Source: a virus
Strand: one strand, 5' to 3'
Virus record (IMG/VR): IMGVR_UViG_3300045988_001845
Location: 1 to 5,610 of that record
DNA: 5,610 nt
In this document: piece after piece, positions 1 to 5,610 of the stretch
How positions within the stretch are numbered: position 1 is the first letter of the stretch
How the letters are laid out: every line of letters starts with the position of its first letter
The notes under the pieces: generated by a model
Told to the model about the DNA's origin: nothing
Seen by the model: the letters and a program-made list of their open reading frames with translations, nothing else
Database searches by the model: none
Program-made: the position numbers and the translations under genes

Positions 1-77
1 AAGAAAAAAATAAACTGGAGTGGAACGGCGTATATACAGGACACACTGACACAAACCAAATTGCATATATCGGCGCT
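1..77. repeat. Terminal direct repeat, copy 1, identical to 5534-5610. This is the assembly overlap of a circular genome.
   Basis: Base-by-base comparison shows 1-77 equals 5534-5610 (77/77). The VP1 reading frame runs seamlessly through the junction: frame 1 at the window end corresponds to frame 3 at the window start. Confidence 0.95.
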
Positions 78-845
78 AACTTAGCAGAAGTAACTGGTGC
101 AACCATCAACCAGTTAAGACAGGCCATCAGCGTACAGCAGTACTATGAAGCACTGGCACGAGGCGGCAGCCGATACCGTGAACAGGTACAGGCACTGTGG
201 AACGTAGTCATCAGCGATAAAACCGTACAGGTGCCAGAATACCTTGGCGGTGGCAGATATCACGTCAATATAAACCAAATCGTGCAGACAGCGGAAAACG
301 ATAAGTCACCGCTGGGCGAAACTGGTGCAATGTCAGTGACGCCGATAAACGAAAGCTCTTTTACAAAATCTTTTGAAGAGCATGGGTTTGTAATTGGTGT
401 CTGTTGTGTGCGACACAATCGCAGTTATCAGCAGGGCTTGGAGCGTTTCTGGAGCCGAGAAGACAGACTAGACTACTATGTACCGCAGTTTGCAAACATC
501 GGTGAGCAGCCTGTAAAAAAGAAAGAAATCATGTTGACCGGCAATGCAACAGATGAAGAAACATTCGGATACCAGGAGGCTTGGGCCGATTACCGAATGA
601 AACCAAACCGCGTATCTGGATTAATGCGAAGCAATGCCACTGGCACGCTTGACTTCTGGCACTACGGAGATTATTACGAAAGTGTACCAACGCTTTCTCA
701 GGAATGGATGGCAGAAGGCAAAAAAGAGATTGCACGGACTTTGGTCGCAGAGGATGAACCACAGTTCTTCGGTGCAATCAGAGTGGCAAACAAAACAACC
801 AGACGAATGCCGCTTTACAGCGTGCCGGGTCTGTATAAACTGTAA
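1..845 (+). CDS. VP1: Major capsid protein VP1, C-terminal part, continuing from 4708-5610 across the circular junction. Codons are in phase with position 3 and the stop is TAA at 843-845.
   Basis: Frame 3 is open from the window edge, with no stop before the GTG at 231 that the ORF track used as a start. The translation [13 protein letters not shown]...[30 protein letters not shown]...[14 protein letters not shown] has the RGGSRY-type block and C-terminal region typical of Microviridae F/VP1 capsid proteins. The joined ORF is 1,671 nt, or 556 aa. Confidence 0.93.
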
Positions 846-846
846 G

Positions 847-880
847 AAAGGAGGAAGCCCGGAGAAATCCGGGCTATTTT
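847..880 (+). terminator. Shine-Dalgarno sequence followed by a GC-rich hairpin with a GAAA tetraloop and a T4 run. It is either a weak intrinsic terminator or attenuator after VP1, or a structure bridging the SD to the VP2 start.
   Basis: AAAGGAGG lies at 847-854. The stem AGCCCGGA (856-863) pairs with TCCGGGCT (868-875) as 8 perfect base pairs, with loop GAAA (864-867). ATTTT follows at 876-880, and the VP2 ATG is at 884. Confidence 0.6.
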
Positions 881-883
881 AAA

Positions 884-1771
884 ATGTCGCTATTAGGAAT
901 ATTAGGAACAATTGGAAACGTAGCCGGAACAGTTGGCACAGTAGCAAACGCAGTTGGACAAATCGGAAATGCGTTTGGTGCATGGGGTCAGACAGGACAA
1001 AGCCAAAGCCAAGGCGGAAGTACACAGCAAGGCGGTGGACAAAGCCAAAGCATGAGCAAATCTGGAACGAATGATGAACAGGTAATGCAATATCTGAAAG
1101 GCGCATACCAATATCAAAACGCCGAAGGAGCAAGACAAAGCCAGTTCAACCAGAGATCTATGCTGGAACAAATGGGTTATAACACATTGGGAGCAATCAT
1201 GCAAGGCATATATAACCACATCGAAAACGCAACGGCAATGAATTTCAACAGCACAGAAGCCATGAAAAATCGGGAATGGCAAGAACACATGTCAAACACG
1301 GCATATCAAAGAGCAGTGGAAGACATGAAAAAAGCGGGTTTAAATCCTATTCTAGCATTTCAGAACGGCGGCGCAAGCACACCGGGAGGCAGTGCAGCAA
1401 CGATCTCGGGCGCAAGCATGGGTGCACCATCGTCAAGTGCACTAGGAGTAAGCAGAGCAAGCGGCTTCGTACCTAACTCATACTCAAGTGAAAGTTGGTC
1501 GCAAAGCGACTGGTACAATGCAGCGCAAAGCTGGAATCAGATGCTTAGCAGCACAGGCATGACACCACTGGGATTACAGAAAACACTATCAGAAATCGGA
1601 GAAGGAACAGGAAGCTTAATCGACAAAACCGTTGGAGCAGGAAGAAAAGCCGCAGAAGAAGGAAAAGGAAACATAAACAAAGCCATGGACAACGTAAGAA
1701 ACGGCCATGGAATAGACAACATCACAGGCAATAGAAATAGAGCCGGTGGTGGAGCAGGAAGGAGCAAATAA
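884..1771 (+). CDS. VP2: Minor capsid / DNA pilot protein VP2 (295 aa)
   Basis: It sits immediately downstream of VP1, as in gokushoviruses. It has a Gly/Gln/Ser-rich low-complexity N-terminus and the conserved block [29 protein letters not shown], which I recognise from microvirus VP2 proteins. Confidence 0.85.
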
Positions 1772-1774
1772 AAA

Positions 1775-2794
1775 ATGAGCTGCTATAAGCCGTTAATACG
1801 GATATACAGCCCAGAAAACAAAGAAATCAGCGGGCAGGTGTATACGCTTGCCCGCTTTTCTGAAAGAATGGGCAAAAAATTAAAATATGAAGATTTGATG
1901 TATGAACCAAAAATTATGCTAATACCATGCGGGCAATGCATCGGATGCAGAATAAGACAACGCGAAGACTGGACAACGAGAATTGAACTGGAAGCACGAG
2001 ACTGGCCAAAAGAACAAGTCTGGTTTATTACGCTAACTTACGATGATGAGCACGTACCGGGAATGATTCTTAAAACAGGCGAAATCATGAGAAAAGTTCA
2101 ATACGTCTGGAAACCGGGAGAGAAAGCACCAGAAAGCGTACAAACGCTAATGTATCCCGACGTTCAAAAATTCTTAAAACGTCTCAGAAAGGCTTACAAG
2201 GACAAATTGCGCTATTTCTGTGCCGGAGAGTATGGAGAACAGACAGCAAGACCACACTATCACATGATTCTATATGGATGGGAACCGAAAGATCTGAAAC
2301 AGCTGTACAAAATCCATCACAACGGGTATTACACAAGCGAATGGATGCAAAAAATATGGGGAAATGGACAAATTCAAATAGCGCAAGCAGTACCCGAAAC
2401 ATATAGATATGTTGCAGGATACGTAACAAAAAAAATGTACGAAATTGACGGCAAAAAAGCAAACACTTACTATGAACTAGGGCAACAAAAGCCATTCGCG
2501 TGCATGTCACTCAGGCCAGGACTAGGCGATTCTTACTATCAAGAACACAAAGAAGAAATATGGAGAAAAGGCTACATTCAATGCACTAATGGAAAACGAG
2601 CACAGATACCGCGATACTATGAAAAAATGATGGAGAAAGAAAATCCAGAAAGGCTATGGAGAATCAAGCAGAACAGGCAAAAAGCCACGATCGAAGAAAA
2701 AAGACTAGCGTTGGAAAACTCAGACTATAAGACCACACTCGAAACAAAAGAGCGTGTCACCAAAAAACAAATGAAAAAACGTGGAATTTTATAG
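1775..2794 (+). CDS. VP4: Replication initiation protein VP4, an HUH rolling-circle endonuclease of the phiX174 gene A family (339 aa)
   Basis: An N-terminal Cys cluster PCGQCIGCRIRQREDW is present. The rolling-circle replication motifs are FITLTY (motif 1), RPHYHMILYG (HUH motif 2, H161/H163) and YVAGYVTKK (motif 3, paired tyrosines Y212/Y216, compare phiX174 A YVAKYVNK). AAGGAG at 1759-1764 lies 10 nt upstream of the ATG. Confidence 0.95.
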   Translation: MSCYKPLIRIYSPENKEISGQVYTLARFSERMGKKLKYEDLMYEPKIMLIPCGQCIGCRIRQREDWTTRIELEARDWPKEQVWFITLTYDDEHVPGMILKTGEIMRKVQYVWKPGEKAPESVQTLMYPDVQKFLKRLRKAYKDKLRYFCAGEYGEQTARPHYHMILYGWEPKDLKQLYKIHHNGYYTSEWMQKIWGNGQIQIAQAVPETYRYVAGYVTKKMYEIDGKKANTYYELGQQKPFACMSLRPGLGDSYYQEHKEEIWRKGYIQCTNGKRAQIPRYYEKMMEKENPERLWRIKQNRQKATIEEKRLALENSDYKTTLETKERVTKKQMKKRGIL

Positions 2795-2806
2795 TTGGTG
2801 TCACCT

Positions 2807-2838
2807 AGCCCAGTACCTATCAAGTAAGGTACTGGGCT
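2807..2838 (+). terminator. Perfect 12-bp stem-loop directly after VP4. It may be the end of the transcription unit or a structural element of an origin.
   Basis: AGCCCAGTACCT (2807-2818) is the exact reverse complement of AGGTACTGGGCT (2827-2838), with an 8-nt loop ATCAAGTA. The downstream sequence TATTCGCG has only a poor T tract, so a role as an intrinsic terminator is uncertain. Confidence 0.45.
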
Positions 2839-2842
2839 TATT

Positions 2843-2888
2843 CGCGCGCACACGCGCACGCGTAGACGCGCGCACACGCGCACGCGTA
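2843..2888. repeat. Tandem duplication of a 22-nt GC-rich alternating pyrimidine-purine element (period 24)
   Basis: CGCGCGCACACGCGCACGCGTA at 2843-2864 is repeated exactly at 2867-2888, separated by GA. Each copy is 11 consecutive Py-Pu dinucleotides (CG/CA/TA). Only G2865 breaks the alternation across the 46 nt. The block is about three-quarters G+C in an otherwise A-rich genome. Confidence 0.95.
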
Positions 2889-2928
2889 TTTATAATATTA
2901 ACTTGTTGTAGACGTAGTAGTAGAGTAT

Positions 2929-3091
2929 GTGGAAAAGTTGAAAGCAGATAAATTTGAACGTCAGAGCATTAAAAAATGGCAAAAACAAATATTAAAAGAA
3001 ATGTTAAAAACTTGTTAAATTGTTGAAACACTCTGTTATGCTAAAGTTTAACAATGTTAAAATGTTGAAAACTATGTGGAAAATGTTAAAA
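2929..3091 (+). repeat. Iteron-like array of same-orientation GTT(A/G)AAA heptamers with GTGGAAA and GTTAAAT variants
   Basis: Exact GTTGAAA or GTTAAAA occurs at 2937, 3003, 3022, 3056, 3064 and 3085. Variants are GTGGAAA at 2929 and 3076 and GTTAAAT at 3014. They fall in three clusters with 8-12 bp spacing. A longer imperfect direct repeat is TATGTGGAAAAGTTGAAAGCA (2926-2946) versus TATGTGGAAAATGTTAAAAGCA (3073-3094). Confidence 0.85.
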
Positions 3092-3104
3092 GCACCTACA
3101 GTGA

Positions 3105-3155
3105 ACCTACCGAAGTTTCAAAAGTTGCTACGCAACCCTTGAAAATTCGGTAGGT
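3105..3155 (+). other. Long imperfect hairpin of 51 nt with 21 base pairs, present in the packaged + strand
   Basis: All pairs share one axis (i+j=3260). Positions 3105-3114 pair with 3146-3155 (10 bp), followed by a G/A mismatch. Positions 3116-3121 pair with 3139-3144 (6 bp), followed by a 2x2 internal loop. Positions 3124-3128 pair with 3132-3136 (5 bp), closed by the triloop TAC. Confidence 0.85.
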
Positions 3156-3167
3156 GTATGATACAAT
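3139..3167 (+). promoter_or_regulatory. Sigma70/SigA-type promoter with an extended -10 element, driving the peptidase-to-VP4 gene block
   Basis: The -35 is TTGAAA (3139-3144). A 17-bp spacer follows, then TGaTACAAT (3159-3167), which is TGn plus a TACAAT -10. AAGGAG at 3186-3191 lies 9 nt before the ATG at 3201. No other comparably good -35/-10 pair was found in the intergenic region. Confidence 0.55.
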
Positions 3168-3200
3168 GCCAAATAGAAGAAAAGAAAGGAGCTGTAGAAC

Positions 3201-3593
3201 ATGGAAATTAAAGCATACGTGATGGAAGAACAAGGAAACGTAAAAGTAGCAGAACACTTTAGAGTAAAAGAATTTGCATGTAAAGACGGCACACCAATCG
3301 TTTTTATTGATGAGTATCTTGCAATTTTACTTGACATTGCAAGGAACGAAATTGGAAAGCCAATCACAATCACGAGTGGATATCGAACGGTTCTACACAA
3401 CGCGAAAGTAGGCGGAGCAAAATACAGCTTTCATACAAGAGGTATGGCCGCTGACATTAAAGCAGACGGCGTAAAGCCAAAAGAACTTGCAAAAGTACTA
3501 GACAGAATTGTGCCGAACAGTTGCGGCATCATCGTATACGACAACTGGGTGCATTTCGATACAAGAAACACAAAATACAGAAAGGGGGTATAA
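3201..3593 (+). CDS. Zinc D-Ala-D-Ala-carboxypeptidase-fold peptidase, family M15 (Peptidase_M15_3 / YcbK-like), a putative cell-wall hydrolase or endolysin (130 aa)
   Basis: Diagnostic motifs are FRVKEFACKDG, ITSGYR, N-x3-GG, SFH-x6-D (H78, D85) and VHFD (H118, D120), which form the H/D/H zinc triad of LAS/M15 enzymes. The protein is a single catalytic domain with no signal peptide, transmembrane segment or wall-binding domain. Confidence 0.85.
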   Translation: MEIKAYVMEEQGNVKVAEHFRVKEFACKDGTPIVFIDEYLAILLDIARNEIGKPITITSGYRTVLHNAKVGGAKYSFHTRGMAADIKADGVKPKELAKVLDRIVPNSCGIIVYDNWVHFDTRNTKYRKGV

Positions 3594-3597
3594 ACAA

Positions 3598-3720
3598 ATG
3601 GCTCTTATCAGTATCAAAGATGTAAAGCAGGCAATCCGCATCATGATGCAGATTCTGGAAAAGCTGGATGAGATCTATCATGCACTGCATGACAACATCA
3701 ACGATAAAGAAGAGGAGTAA
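3598..3720 (+). CDS. Hypothetical small acidic protein (40 aa) with a predicted amphipathic or coiled-coil helix
   Basis: The ATG lies 4 nt after the peptidase stop, with AAAGGGGG (3581-3588) 9 nt upstream. The sequence is MALISIKDVKQAIRIMMQILEKLDEIYHALHDNINDKEEE. Hydrophobic residues follow a heptad pattern (6, 9, 13, 16, 20, 23, 27, 30) and the net charge is about -4. The ORF track's 3508 start lies inside the peptidase gene and is unlikely. Confidence 0.5.
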   Translation: MALISIKDVKQAIRIMMQILEKLDEIYHALHDNINDKEEE

Positions 3721-3722
3721 CA

Positions 3723-3950
3723 ATGGTATACAAAACATGGAACGTAAGAGACCAGCCCAAAGAAACACTGGAAAGACAACTCGAAAAAAAATACAAAGAA
3801 ATTAATAGCAATTACAAATTGCTTAGAAAAGTATCAAACATTGATGATGCAAAAAAACTAATAGATGAAATTTGGCAATGCAAAAGCTTTGCCAACGACA
3901 TCGAGTTAGAGCTAATGAGAAGGGAGAGCAACAATGGCCCGACATCGTAA
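3723..3950 (+). CDS. Hypothetical protein (75 aa), charged and helical, with no motif I recognise
   Basis: The ATG lies 2 nt after the preceding stop, with GAGGAG just upstream. It is packed between neighbouring genes and overlaps the next ORF by 17 nt. Confidence 0.55.
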   Translation: MVYKTWNVRDQPKETLERQLEKKYKEINSNYKLLRKVSNIDDAKKLIDEIWQCKSFANDIELELMRRESNNGPTS

Positions 3951-4056
3951 AGCAATGCGCAGTGCAAAGGATAAGCGCATGTTTAACGTGACTGCACGAA
4001 AAACGAAAAGCATCAACTTGAGCCAAAAGCCCATGCGCGGTGGAATCCGGCTCTAA
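3934..4056 (+). CDS. Small, highly basic, putative DNA-binding/packaging protein (40 aa), analogous to gokushovirus ORF8 and phiX174 J
   Basis: This ORF is not in the ORF track. The sequence is MARHRKAMRSAKDKRMFNVTARKTKSINLSQKPMRGGIRL, with 13 Lys/Arg and 1 acidic residue. The C-terminal RGGIRL ending resembles small basic proteins I recall from gokushovirus genomes. AAGGGAGAG lies 6 nt upstream of the ATG. Confidence 0.65.
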   Translation: MARHRKAMRSAKDKRMFNVTARKTKSINLSQKPMRGGIRL

Positions 4057-4072
4057 GAGAAAGGAAAAAAAA

Positions 4073-4318
4073 ATGGTTCACAATTATTACGGTATCTACG
4101 ACAACGTAGCAAAATGCTATGCATGGGTAGGCGAGAGCAAAAATGACGGCACATTTGCACGAATGTGCAACGTGATGCAGAAGGACAAGAGCACGTTTAT
4201 CGGACAGTCCCCGACCGATTACGCGGGCTATAAGCTGGCAGAATTCGAAGACGAAAACGGTTGCTTCGTCATGGGCGATGGACAGCACAAAGTATGGGAG
4301 GGCAAACCGAATGAATAA
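4073..4318 (+). CDS. VP5: Conserved gokushovirus small non-structural protein, VP5-like (81 aa)
   Basis: The pattern YGIYDNVAKCY...ND..FAR......D.S......PTDY..YKLAEFEDENG matches the (V/I)(F/Y)D..A..Y / A.R.F / P.D(F/Y).LY.IG.(F/Y)DD.TG signature I associate with VP5/ORF5 proteins. I chose the ATG at 4073 (AAGGA plus a 7-nt spacer) over the track's 4040, which lies inside the previous ORF. Confidence 0.6.
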   Translation: MVHNYYGIYDNVAKCYAWVGESKNDGTFARMCNVMQKDKSTFIGQSPTDYAGYKLAEFEDENGCFVMGDGQHKVWEGKPNE

Positions 4319-4724
4319 GAGGTATGAAGAGGGGCGAAAACCCCTCTTTTCTGCATCAGGAGAAACACAGCGCAAACAGTACGTATGGGCAAAAGACAAA
4401 GAAGGAAAAGAATATCTACAGGAAACAGAAAGTATCGATATTCAAGCAGAAATTGAAAGCTATTCGGATGAATGTGATATTAAAAACATTGTCCGGAAAG
4501 CAAGCTTTGACCCACAGTTTATGAAGAGTCTTTCACAGGGAGCATTGGACGGAACAGAGGTAGACATTACCGAATGGCCGCAGAATATCCATGAGTATCA
4601 TCGAATGATTGCAACAGCCCAAGCAAATGCAATGATGCTACAGGAAATACAGGAAAAAGAACCGAAGGAAGAACCAAAGGAAGAACCAAAAGAAGGAGGA
4701 ATGAACGGTGAACAGAAACAATGA
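4311..4724 (+). CDS. VP3: Internal scaffolding protein VP3 (137 aa from the preferred start)
   Basis: The block IDIQAEIESYSDECDIKNIVRK...GALDGTEVDITEWPQNIHEY fits the conserved VP3 pattern (I..eIqSY.e.CDI..I...G.y.D.T.mP). GGGAGGG (4296-4302) lies 8 nt before the ATG at 4311. The track's 4278 start has no SD. The gene sits immediately before VP1, as in gokushoviruses. Confidence 0.78.
   Translation: MNKRYEEGRKPLFSASGETQRKQYVWAKDKEGKEYLQETESIDIQAEIESYSDECDIKNIVRKASFDPQFMKSLSQGALDGTEVDITEWPQNIHEYHRMIATAQANAMMLQEIQEKEPKEEPKEEPKEGGMNGEQKQ
4659..4694 (+). repeat. Three tandem 12-bp repeats (GAACCNAARGAA) encoding (EPKE)x3 at the VP3 C-terminus
   Basis: The three copies are 4659-4670, 4671-4682 and 4683-4694, differing only at synonymous positions. 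The repeat runs into the AAGGAGGA SD used by VP1. Confidence 0.85.
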
Positions 4725-5610
4725 ACGGCACTTTAATCAGATTCCACAGATGAAAGCAAGCCGAACGAGATTCAATCGAGACCAGACAATTCTAACCACA
4801 TTTGATGCAGGAAAATTAATCCCTTTTTACGTAGATGAAGTCTTGCCGGGTGATACTTTCAGCGTGGACACGGCGGCAATCATTCGTATGACCACACCGA
4901 AGTACCCAGTGATGGACGACAGCTTCATTGATTTTTATTACTTCTTCTGTCCAAACCGCATTTTGTGGGACAACTTCAAGTACTTTATGGGCGAAGTCGA
5001 AGAAACGCCATGGACACCTGCAAAAACGTACTCTGTGCCACAAATCAAAATCAACGGGGCGAATGCGAAACCGGCACCGGACGAAAGAAGCATTCTCGAC
5101 TATATGGGAGTGCCAACGAAGGTGAAAAAACCTTTCAGCATCAACGCACTTCCTATCAGAGCGTATATAAAAATCTGGAATGAATTTTTCAGAGATGAAA
5201 ACGTGGACAACGCGGCAGTATTAAAAACAGACGATGCAGACGTAAACTACGAATTTGGAAACGAAAATTCGATCCAAGAAGCAGAAAACAACGCGTACAA
5301 AGGCGGAAACCTGTTACCTGTAAACAAATTTCACGACTACTTCACAAGCTGTCTGCCTTATCCTCAGAGAGGACCAGATGTGACATTACCAATGGCAGGA
5401 AACGCGCCAGTCGAGATATACGGAGACAGCAAACTAACACAAGAACCAAACTGGCTATACAATGAAAGAAGCTACGTAGGGGGAAACAACGTAGGAGCAA
5501 AAATTTACGCAACAGACCCAGGCACAAACCCAAAAGAAAAAAATAAACTGGAGTGGAACGGCGTATATACAGGACACACTGACACAAACCAAATTGCATA
5601 TATCGGCGCT
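4708..5610 (+). CDS. VP1: Major capsid protein VP1, N-terminal part. It runs off the window end and continues at 78 (equivalent to 1-845 after removing the duplicated 77 nt).
   Basis: Frame 1 is stop-free from 4705 to 5610. A GTG at 4708 lies 7 nt after AAGGAGGA (4693-4700). The translation is (M)NRNNERHFNQIPQMKASRTRFNRDQTILTTFDAGKLIPFYVDEVLPGDTF...HDYFTSCLPYPQRG. The H.F.Q(V/I)P....R..F(D/N)R.....TTFDAG.LIP...DEVLPGDTF N-terminus is the hallmark of gokushovirus VP1, and it begins upstream of the first ATG (4750). Confidence 0.93.
   Translation, partial: MNRNNERHFNQIPQMKASRTRFNRDQTILTTFDAGKLIPFYVDEVLPGDTFSVDTAAIIRMTTPKYPVMDDSFIDFYYFFCPNRILWDNFKYFMGEVEETPWTPAKTYSVPQIKINGANAKPAPDERSILDYMGVPTKVKKPFSINALPIRAYIKIWNEFFRDENVDNAAVLKTDDADVNYEFGNENSIQEAENNAYKGGNLLPVNKFHDYFTSCLPYPQRGPDVTLPMAGNAPVEIYGDSKLTQEPNWLYNERSYVGGNNVGAKIYATDPGTNPKEKNKLEWNGVYTGHTDTNQIAYIGA
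5534..5610. repeat. Terminal direct repeat, copy 2, identical to 1-77
   Basis: It matches 1-77 at all 77 positions and lies inside the VP1 coding sequence. Confidence 0.95.

Follow-up and report, generated by a model that had tools for sequence, protein, structure and literature searches.

How can a very small phage make use of an enzyme that attacks the cell wall if none of its genes appears able to bring that enzyme across the membrane? The question is posed by a gene at positions 3201-3593 (+ strand) of the IMG/VR virus record IMGVR_UViG_3300045988_001845, of which positions 1 to 5,610 were analysed; this whole stretch of 5,610 nucleotides (nt) is called the window below. An earlier reading of the letters alone, referred to here as the original prediction, had described the gene as encoding an M15 zinc peptidase in a microvirus with no holin, signal sequence or membrane partner. 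The window proves to hold a genome of gokushovirus type. Few phages of the mammalian gut are more abundant than gokushoviruses, and this lineage provides a compact case for asking how they leave their hosts: only one of its lysis enzymes is recognisable, a holin is missing, and close relatives do without the enzyme. We conclude that the peptidase is probably an endolysin acquired by capture, which breaks down the sacculus in the final stage of infection and thereby serves release. The gene itself is ordinary; the value of the finding lies in a testable question about holin-less lysis that concerns the lineage as a whole.

The open reading frame (ORF) at 3201-3593 begins with ATG and encodes 130 amino acids, which form a single domain without a wall-binding domain. 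It is preceded at 3186-3192 (+) by AAAGGAG, a Shine-Dalgarno-like sequence about 9 nt ahead of the start codon. In a profile search the product matched Peptidase_M15_3 (PF08291) with an E-value of 4.9e-21 and a score of 75.3 bits, to be compared with a cut-off of 23.2, over positions 2-108 of the 108 in the profile, and it matched PHROG 894, labelled ‘endolysin’, with an E-value of 8.3e-39. The match to PF05951 (M15_2/DUF882) was weak (E 2.1e-5) and just below the cut-off, and that to the NCBIfam model of the L,D-endopeptidase MepK lay far under the cut-off of the model. The VanX/VanY-type families PF02557, PF01427 and PF13539 gave no match at E <= 0.1. The zinc site originally proposed, H78/D85/H118 with D120, is invariant in 40 relatives, as is R62. 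In an alignment with the Zn DD-peptidase of Streptomyces albus (1LBU), H78 falls on H154 and D85 on D161, which are zinc ligands of that enzyme. The AlphaFold (AF2) model of the peptidase has a predicted local distance difference test score (pLDDT) of 92 and a predicted template-modelling score (pTM) of 0.86. When this model was compared with the PDB using Foldseek, the best match was 1LBU (E 1e-4), followed by VanY, VanXY, ChiX and Ply500, with LysECD7 and hedgehog N-domains as further LAS-fold matches. The likeness to structures of the VanX/VanY type is at the level of the fold only (template-modelling, or TM, score 0.41-0.45), and phage ‘peptidase’ models in BFVD reach TM-scores of 0.91-0.94. 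Profiles and model together confirm the original assignment of the product to the M15/LAS-fold peptidases with an intact predicted zinc site, and place it in Peptidase_M15_3 (clan Peptidase_MD). Across 82 relatives the ratio of nonsynonymous to synonymous polymorphism (pN/pS) of the gene is 0.32, with synonymous sites near saturation, indicating purifying selection.

We searched for signal sequences and membrane segments with a Kyte-Doolittle hydropathy scan of all + strand frames, read from stop to stop in windows of 17-19 amino acids. In these frames no window exceeded a mean of 1.53 and no membrane helix was found. Of the two windows that score highest, one is a helix buried in the fold of the peptidase. 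The other is the N-terminus of the DNA pilot protein VP2, which is rich in glycine (1.53), and apart from the buried helix it is the only membrane-helix-like segment of the genome. The claim that the + strand contains no transmembrane-like ORF thus stands as regards hydropathy, but it had overlooked this hydrophobic segment of VP2. The VP2 N-termini are similar in the relatives, and the segment can be likened to the membrane helix at the N-terminus of protein H of phiX174. The N-terminus of the peptidase, MEIKAYVMEEQGNVKV, is acidic, lacks a hydrophobic segment and forms a strand of the fold; in agreement with the original prediction, the scan found no signal and no signal-arrest-release (SAR) segment in this protein. 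N-terminally extended calls of the peptidase (up to 199 amino acids) were considered as hidden signals and rejected, the extensions being hydrophilic read-through of the upstream region.

The lack of a membrane partner is not peculiar to this genome. Across 83 relatives the hydrophobic segments on the + strand consist of VP2 N-termini and a few isolated ORFs, and a holin, signal or SAR segment is absent from this genome and from 82 of the 83. The lineage-wide absence of a membrane partner, which enlarges the original claim for a single coding strand, is real and is documented here. The exception is the relative L012, where 170 nt are inserted immediately ahead of the peptidase gene and contain a holin-like ORF (2775-2942, likely start 2802, 46-55 amino acids) with its own ribosome-binding site. 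This ORF overlaps the peptidase start, and its product of 46 amino acids has one strong membrane helix and a charged tail. To judge from the sequence, the two genes have the classic holin-endolysin layout. A holin-like ORF adjoining the peptidase was seen in this one relative of the 83, and no homologue of its product was found in phage records or in a set of 5.8 billion proteins; it was therefore rejected as a general partner. L012 shows that a holin can be added, in keeping with an endolysin role, and that the greater part of the lineage does without.

The peptidase gene can be compared with known lysis systems. The muralytic enzyme gene of a holin-endolysin cassette is present in the window, but a small membrane protein was not found on the + strand. 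Signal-peptide and SAR endolysins, and LysA of mycobacteriophage Ms6 with its Gp1 chaperone, reach the wall without a holin hole; the N-terminal hydrophobic segment of the former was not found in the peptidase, and the small ORFs that might act here as chaperones are not specific to peptidase carriers. The phage phiX174 is likewise very small, with one recognisable lysis gene and no holin. Its lysis protein E, however, comes from an overprinted gene, is a membrane protein and blocks MraY without enzymatic action, whereas the present gene encodes a soluble predicted hydrolase in its own frame, and no hydrophobic overprinted ORF of the E type was found in the window.

The relatives of the peptidase provide evidence for its origin. 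The closest non-microviral homologues are the endolysins of the Faecalibacterium phages FP_Toutatis and Lelie, which are stand-alone M15_3 proteins of PHROG 894 (137 amino acids), 48% identical to the peptidase and with the same catalytic motifs. In both phages the endolysin is followed by a protein of 131 amino acids with an N-terminal membrane helix and by an XhlA-like protein of 105 amino acids with a C-terminal membrane helix; the microvirus has neither. The same layout, an endolysin followed by membrane proteins, is present in two human-faecal phage fragments. Since the nearest homologues adjoin membrane proteins, this subfamily normally works in a membrane-protein lysis cassette, and these sequence comparisons make it likely that an ancestor of the gokushovirus lineage captured the peptidase from such a cassette of a tailed phage and left the holin behind. 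Within the microviruses the gene is widespread. The nearest GenBank genomes, from human, pig and monkey faeces, are ~77-82% identical to the window at the nucleotide level (~80% for the nearest record) and carry the same gene, labelled ‘peptidase M15’ or ‘similar to peptidase’; the ‘peptidase M15’ of KX513868 shares 81% of its amino acids with the peptidase. In these relatives the gene follows VP4, and in KX513868, MG945430 and MG945781 it lies between VP4 and VP5/VP3, as here. IMG/VR contains 214 relatives of the peptidase, and the 80 loci retrieved are nearly all on contigs of 4.3-6.3 kb. A large protein collection yielded 1,102 homologues, the best 120 of which are mostly on contigs of up to ~6 kb, and the identical protein occurs on at least 3 other public contigs, from different samples and with the same neighbours.

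That such a gene is present matters little in itself: it has been reported and annotated repeatedly, and its class was described in 2012, so that the original prediction was overstated on this point. Roux et al. reported M15_3 peptidases in five gokushoviruses and six alpaviruses of the human gut, proposed an endolysin role for them and noted unknown ORFs beside the gene (PMC3394797). In their analysis the genes were horizontally acquired, and the gokushovirus versions were nearest to Faecalibacterium genes that adjoin holin genes; phages of the Faecalibacterium type were proposed as the donors (PMC3394797). These gut Gokushovirinae and Alpavirinae genes (PMC3394797; KX513868, KX513876, KX513877, MG945xxx) are of the same Pfam family and size as ours; the gokushovirus versions share its nearest non-microviral relatives, the Faecalibacterium phages, and we see no essential difference. 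Kirchberger and co-workers counted peptidases among the few recurrent accessory genes of microviruses and noted that gokushoviruses otherwise have no known lysis gene (PMC9239249, PMC7062461); the view of a recurrent accessory lysis gene is found in later surveys as well (PMC9239249, PMC7062461, PMC11499846). M15 peptidases also occur in cultured microviruses of Alphaproteobacteria (PMC11499846, PMC9865509). The only microvirus wall enzyme verified biochemically is Gp7 of the Rhodobacter microvirus Ebor (PMC11980548). Purified Gp7 degrades peptidoglycan, in what its authors call the first experimental verification for a single-stranded DNA phage. Like the present gene it is accessory, a wall-degrading enzyme of ~146 amino acids that is absent from smaller relatives. 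It differs in subfamily and in having a proteobacterial host, and Ebor encodes a predicted membrane protein of 45 amino acids (Gp1), whereas the genome in the window encodes none. As Gp7 is called a lysozyme in the methods of PMC11980548, it may not be an M15 enzyme. We found no discussion in the literature of the missing holin in M15-carrying gokushoviruses.

If the peptidase is an endolysin, what we infer of the bond it cleaves, its timing and its export route can be stated as follows. The enzyme would accumulate folded in the cytoplasm, probably from early on, because it is the first gene behind a likely promoter. Late in infection the membrane would be breached, either by a core function of the lineage, which might reside in the hydrophobic, glycine-rich start of VP2 or in one of the small conserved proteins, or by a general failure of the envelope. 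The peptidase would then cut stem peptides or cross-links of the sacculus and so aid the release of progeny. Since close relatives without the peptidase must still leave their hosts, the breach is more likely to come from a function common to the lineage, or from late envelope failure, than from the enzyme, which would therefore act as an accelerator of lysis rather than as a whole lysis system. Finding the route of the enzyme to the wall could thus expose the core lysis function of the gokushoviruses. Knowledge of the bond cleaved could help to decide for or against Firmicute hosts, which no cultured microvirus is known to have, and the peptidase could yield a very small stand-alone lysin.

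Several observations weigh against this account. The first is the lack of any visible membrane route, described above. That the VP2 N-terminus or one of the small proteins damages the membrane is speculative. The solved structures do not single out the wall over its precursors as the substrate, since the best match, 1LBU, is a DD-carboxypeptidase, with VanY and VanXY behind it. The original statement that such enzymes had no functional characterisation is correct for the M15 enzymes of gokushoviruses, for which we found no functional study, but it does not extend to Ebor Gp7 (PMC11980548). Finally, scans of a genome collection did not identify the host. The scan with the peptidase alignment gave no match, the patterns probably being too specific, and a scan with VP4 returned only distant prophage-like copies, in a Clostridia metagenome-assembled genome (MAG), in Desulfovibrio and in Kiritimatiellia, together with one 5.8-kb contig binned with Prevotella, none of them decisive. 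A Firmicute host would fit the strong Shine-Dalgarno sites that precede most genes of this genome and the affinity of the enzyme to those of Faecalibacterium phages.

The window is a complete genome of a gokushovirus-type microvirus, and all genes identified by Pfam and PHROG scans are on the + strand:

4750-5610, continuing 78-845, + strand: VP1 capsid protein (Phage_F)
884-1771, + strand: VP2 DNA pilot protein (PHROG 8742, E 5.7e-107)
1775-2794, + strand: VP4 Rep (PF23343, REP_ORF2-G2P; PHROG 942)
3201-3593, + strand: peptidase, putative endolysin (Pfam PF08291, PHROG 894)
3598-3720, + strand: ORF of 40 amino acids, no family match
3723-3950, + strand: ORF of 75 amino acids, no family match
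3934-4056, + strand: basic protein of 40 amino acids (phrog_10695, function unknown)
4076-4318, + strand: VP5 (Phage_ORF5)
4278-4724, + strand: VP3 scaffold protein (Chlamy_scaf)

Positions 1-77 are identical to 5534-5610. This exact terminal duplication of 77 nt indicates an assembler overlap of a circular genome with a true length of 5533 nt. The overlap also explains an apparent stop in VP1 at the junction of the window, so that a broken VP1 could be dismissed; read as 4750-5610 and then 78-845, the gene is intact across the junction and encodes 542 amino acids. The order downstream of the promoter-like site is peptidase, the 40-residue ORF, the 75-residue ORF, the basic protein, VP5, VP3, VP1, VP2 and VP4. 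Membership of the gokushoviruses follows from the presence of VP1, VP2, VP3, VP4 and VP5 on one strand of a circle of ~5.5 kb, and the nearest GenBank records are classed as Gokushovirinae (Microviridae, in current GenBank usage).

A more far-reaching reading, which we consider unlikely, is that a very large clade of gut gokushoviruses needs no holin at all and lyses with a soluble endolysin in one of two ways: by an attack on wall precursors from inside, or with the membrane breached by VP2, through its glycine-rich N-terminal helix, or by the conserved amphipathic 40-residue protein. Either, if true, would be new among the lysis strategies described for phages. The attack on precursors, one of the ideas of the original prediction, is by itself quite unlikely as an explanation of the peptidase. 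Here the enzyme would remain cytoplasmic, with D-Ala-D-Ala, UDP-MurNAc-pentapeptide or the stem peptides of lipid II as its targets; wall synthesis would fail and growing cells would burst without any need for export, and this would be the first enzymatic case of lysis by a single gene. The lack of an export signal and of a membrane partner is as it predicts; among the nearest solved structures are DD-peptidases with precursors as substrates (1LBU, VanY, VanXY), and the position of the gene, first behind the promoter-like site, would allow a steady accumulation like that of phiX174 protein E. However, the nearest homologues with a known context are endolysins in membrane-protein cassettes, and the Pfam families of VanX and VanY were not matched. 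L012 has gained a holin-like ORF, for which a cytoplasmic enzyme would have no need. Moreover, canonical endolysins, those of M15 type included, build up in the cytoplasm without doing harm as long as the membrane is intact.

That the peptidase serves at entry, another idea of the original prediction, is distinctly improbable. A few copies in the virion would open the wall locally for a tail-less capsid, which would matter most if the host were a thick-walled Firmicute. A T=1 capsid packed with 5.5 kb leaves little room for such passengers, and the peptidase stands alone: it is not fused to VP1 or VP2, and no segment that would dock it to either was detected. Its closest homologues are cassette endolysins rather than tail proteins, and the relatives without peptidase have the same structural genes. 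What speaks for an entry function is that the same M15A-type domain is fused to tail-hub (Gp5 OB-fold) proteins of tailed phages, that Ebor Gp7 is present at trace levels in virions (PMC11980548), and that the peptidase ties the lineage to Faecalibacterium phages (also PMC3394797).

The original prediction also suggested that the enzyme is released by the products of the two small ORFs downstream of it. Such a pair would escort or release the peptidase as the Gp1 chaperone does for LysA of Ms6, and the three genes are indeed adjacent and tightly packed, with purine-rich sites like AAAGGAG ahead of the 40-residue, the 75-residue and the basic 40-residue ORFs. Both small ORFs are real genes, to judge from their being called on other contigs and from purifying selection, although the 40-residue ORF is not annotated in KX513868, MG945430 or MG945781. 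It is present in 83 of 83 relatives with a median identity of 84%, compared with 64% for the peptidase, and is the most conserved small gene of the lineage; this conservation and a pN/pS of 0.14 indicate a real and strongly constrained protein. The protein is predicted to form a strongly amphipathic helix, with a hydrophobic moment of up to 0.67, as a partner might, but its net charge of -4 makes it acidic, and it lacks a membrane segment. The relevant comparison is with gokushoviruses that lack the peptidase. In five of these, L086-L090, whose VP4 is ~47% identical to that of the window, the 40-residue ORF is present at 67-73% identity, ahead of the same basic protein, VP5 and VP3. The 75-residue protein, which is charged and helical, has a clear homologue (50% identity) in one peptidase-less genome, L091 (MG945657), and weak partial matches only in the others. 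Because both ORFs occur in genomes without the enzyme, both would serve the virus independently of it, the partner idea is weakened, and we regard it as very improbable. The 40-residue ORF is, on this comparative evidence, a core gene of the gokushovirus lineage and not a partner specific to the peptidase. The two proteins may still have a general role in lysis, apart from any partnership with the enzyme.

A holin hidden on the complementary strand or overprinted in another frame can hardly be the answer: the - strand does contain many hydrophobic ORFs (among them 3128-3400, antisense to the peptidase, and 3529-3768, antisense to the 40-residue gene), and Roux et al. noted a complementary-strand ORF beside one peptidase (PMC3394797), but the coding strand is A-rich and its complement T-rich, so that such ORFs arise throughout, in every 100-nt bin of most relatives, and were rejected as an artefact of composition, while the recurrent antisense segment VRYPLVIVIGF is simply KPITITSGYRT, a motif conserved in the peptidase, seen from the other strand, synonymous variation in the peptidase gene shows no dip where the antisense ORF overlaps and hence no sign of an overlapping gene, and no + strand frame encodes a membrane helix.

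Two other microvirus genomes contain small hydrophobic ORFs. L101 (Dulem virus 195), which also carries an M15 gene, has an annotated ORF of 35 amino acids at 2593-2700, directly behind the pilot gene, that encodes a strong membrane helix; hydrophobic ORFs are numerous in all three frames of the coding strand of this genome, and these cloud the picture. In L091, just after VP4, an ORF of 58 amino acids (1099-1275) has two hydrophobic stretches; it overlaps a GC-rich repeat region and may be a chance ORF.

The peptidase remains best explained as a captured endolysin. The only long non-coding stretch of the genome is 2795-3200, between VP4 and the peptidase gene. As originally stated, the peptidase is the first gene after this region, which contains the best sigma-70-like site of the + strand at 3139-3167 (TTGAAA-17-TGnTACAAT, with 10 of 12 matches and a TG extension); this is a match to the consensus only, and promoter-like sites in total are not above the shuffled expectation. 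The region upstream of the peptidase varies greatly even among carriers of the enzyme, and in the peptidase-less L086-L090 unrelated small ORFs lie between VP4 and the 40-residue ORF. As these relatives keep the same core genes, the peptidase appears to be an add-on in a variable accessory slot. Across this hypervariable slot after VP4 (in L048, L049 and L051 as well as L086-L090) the small ORFs are unrelated to one another, and several are cysteine-rich and resemble zinc ribbons.

Some elements of the intergenic DNA may be noted in their own right. At 3105-3155 there is a 24-bp imperfect hairpin with a 3-nt loop, whose predicted folding energy as single-stranded DNA is -19.8 kcal/mol (z -7.5 relative to shuffles). 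The hairpin and the -35 element of the promoter-like site at 3139-3167 overlap, and among seven related genomes 7 of 20 pairs keep their pairing through changes on both sides. The hairpin could be a complementary-strand origin or a regulator of the promoter. Between 2987 and 3094 the + strand has five copies of TGTTRAAA, in AAATGTTAAAA-type repeats, within ~90 nt, where 0.74 would be expected in the whole window. The copies are conserved in L004 and L012 and resemble iterons or binding sites for a protein. Directly behind the stop codon of VP4 there is a perfect 12-bp hairpin (2807-2838), and after it come two tandem GC-rich units of 24 nt with the core GCGCGCACACGCGCAC (2836-2883). The DNA of 2807-2883 is similar in many relatives but is read in different frames, and is therefore probably non-coding; for the same reason the ORFs 2781-2951 and 3020-3142 in the gap, which are conserved as repeat or hairpin DNA, were rejected as genes.

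Distant gokushovirus-like gene sets were also observed within long bacterial contigs (L093, L095 and L097), none of them with the peptidase. These include a 132-kb contig of the Clostridia MAG and a 235-kb Desulfovibrio contig, and a contig of the Kiritimatiellia MAG has two VP1/VP4 sets in opposite orientations.

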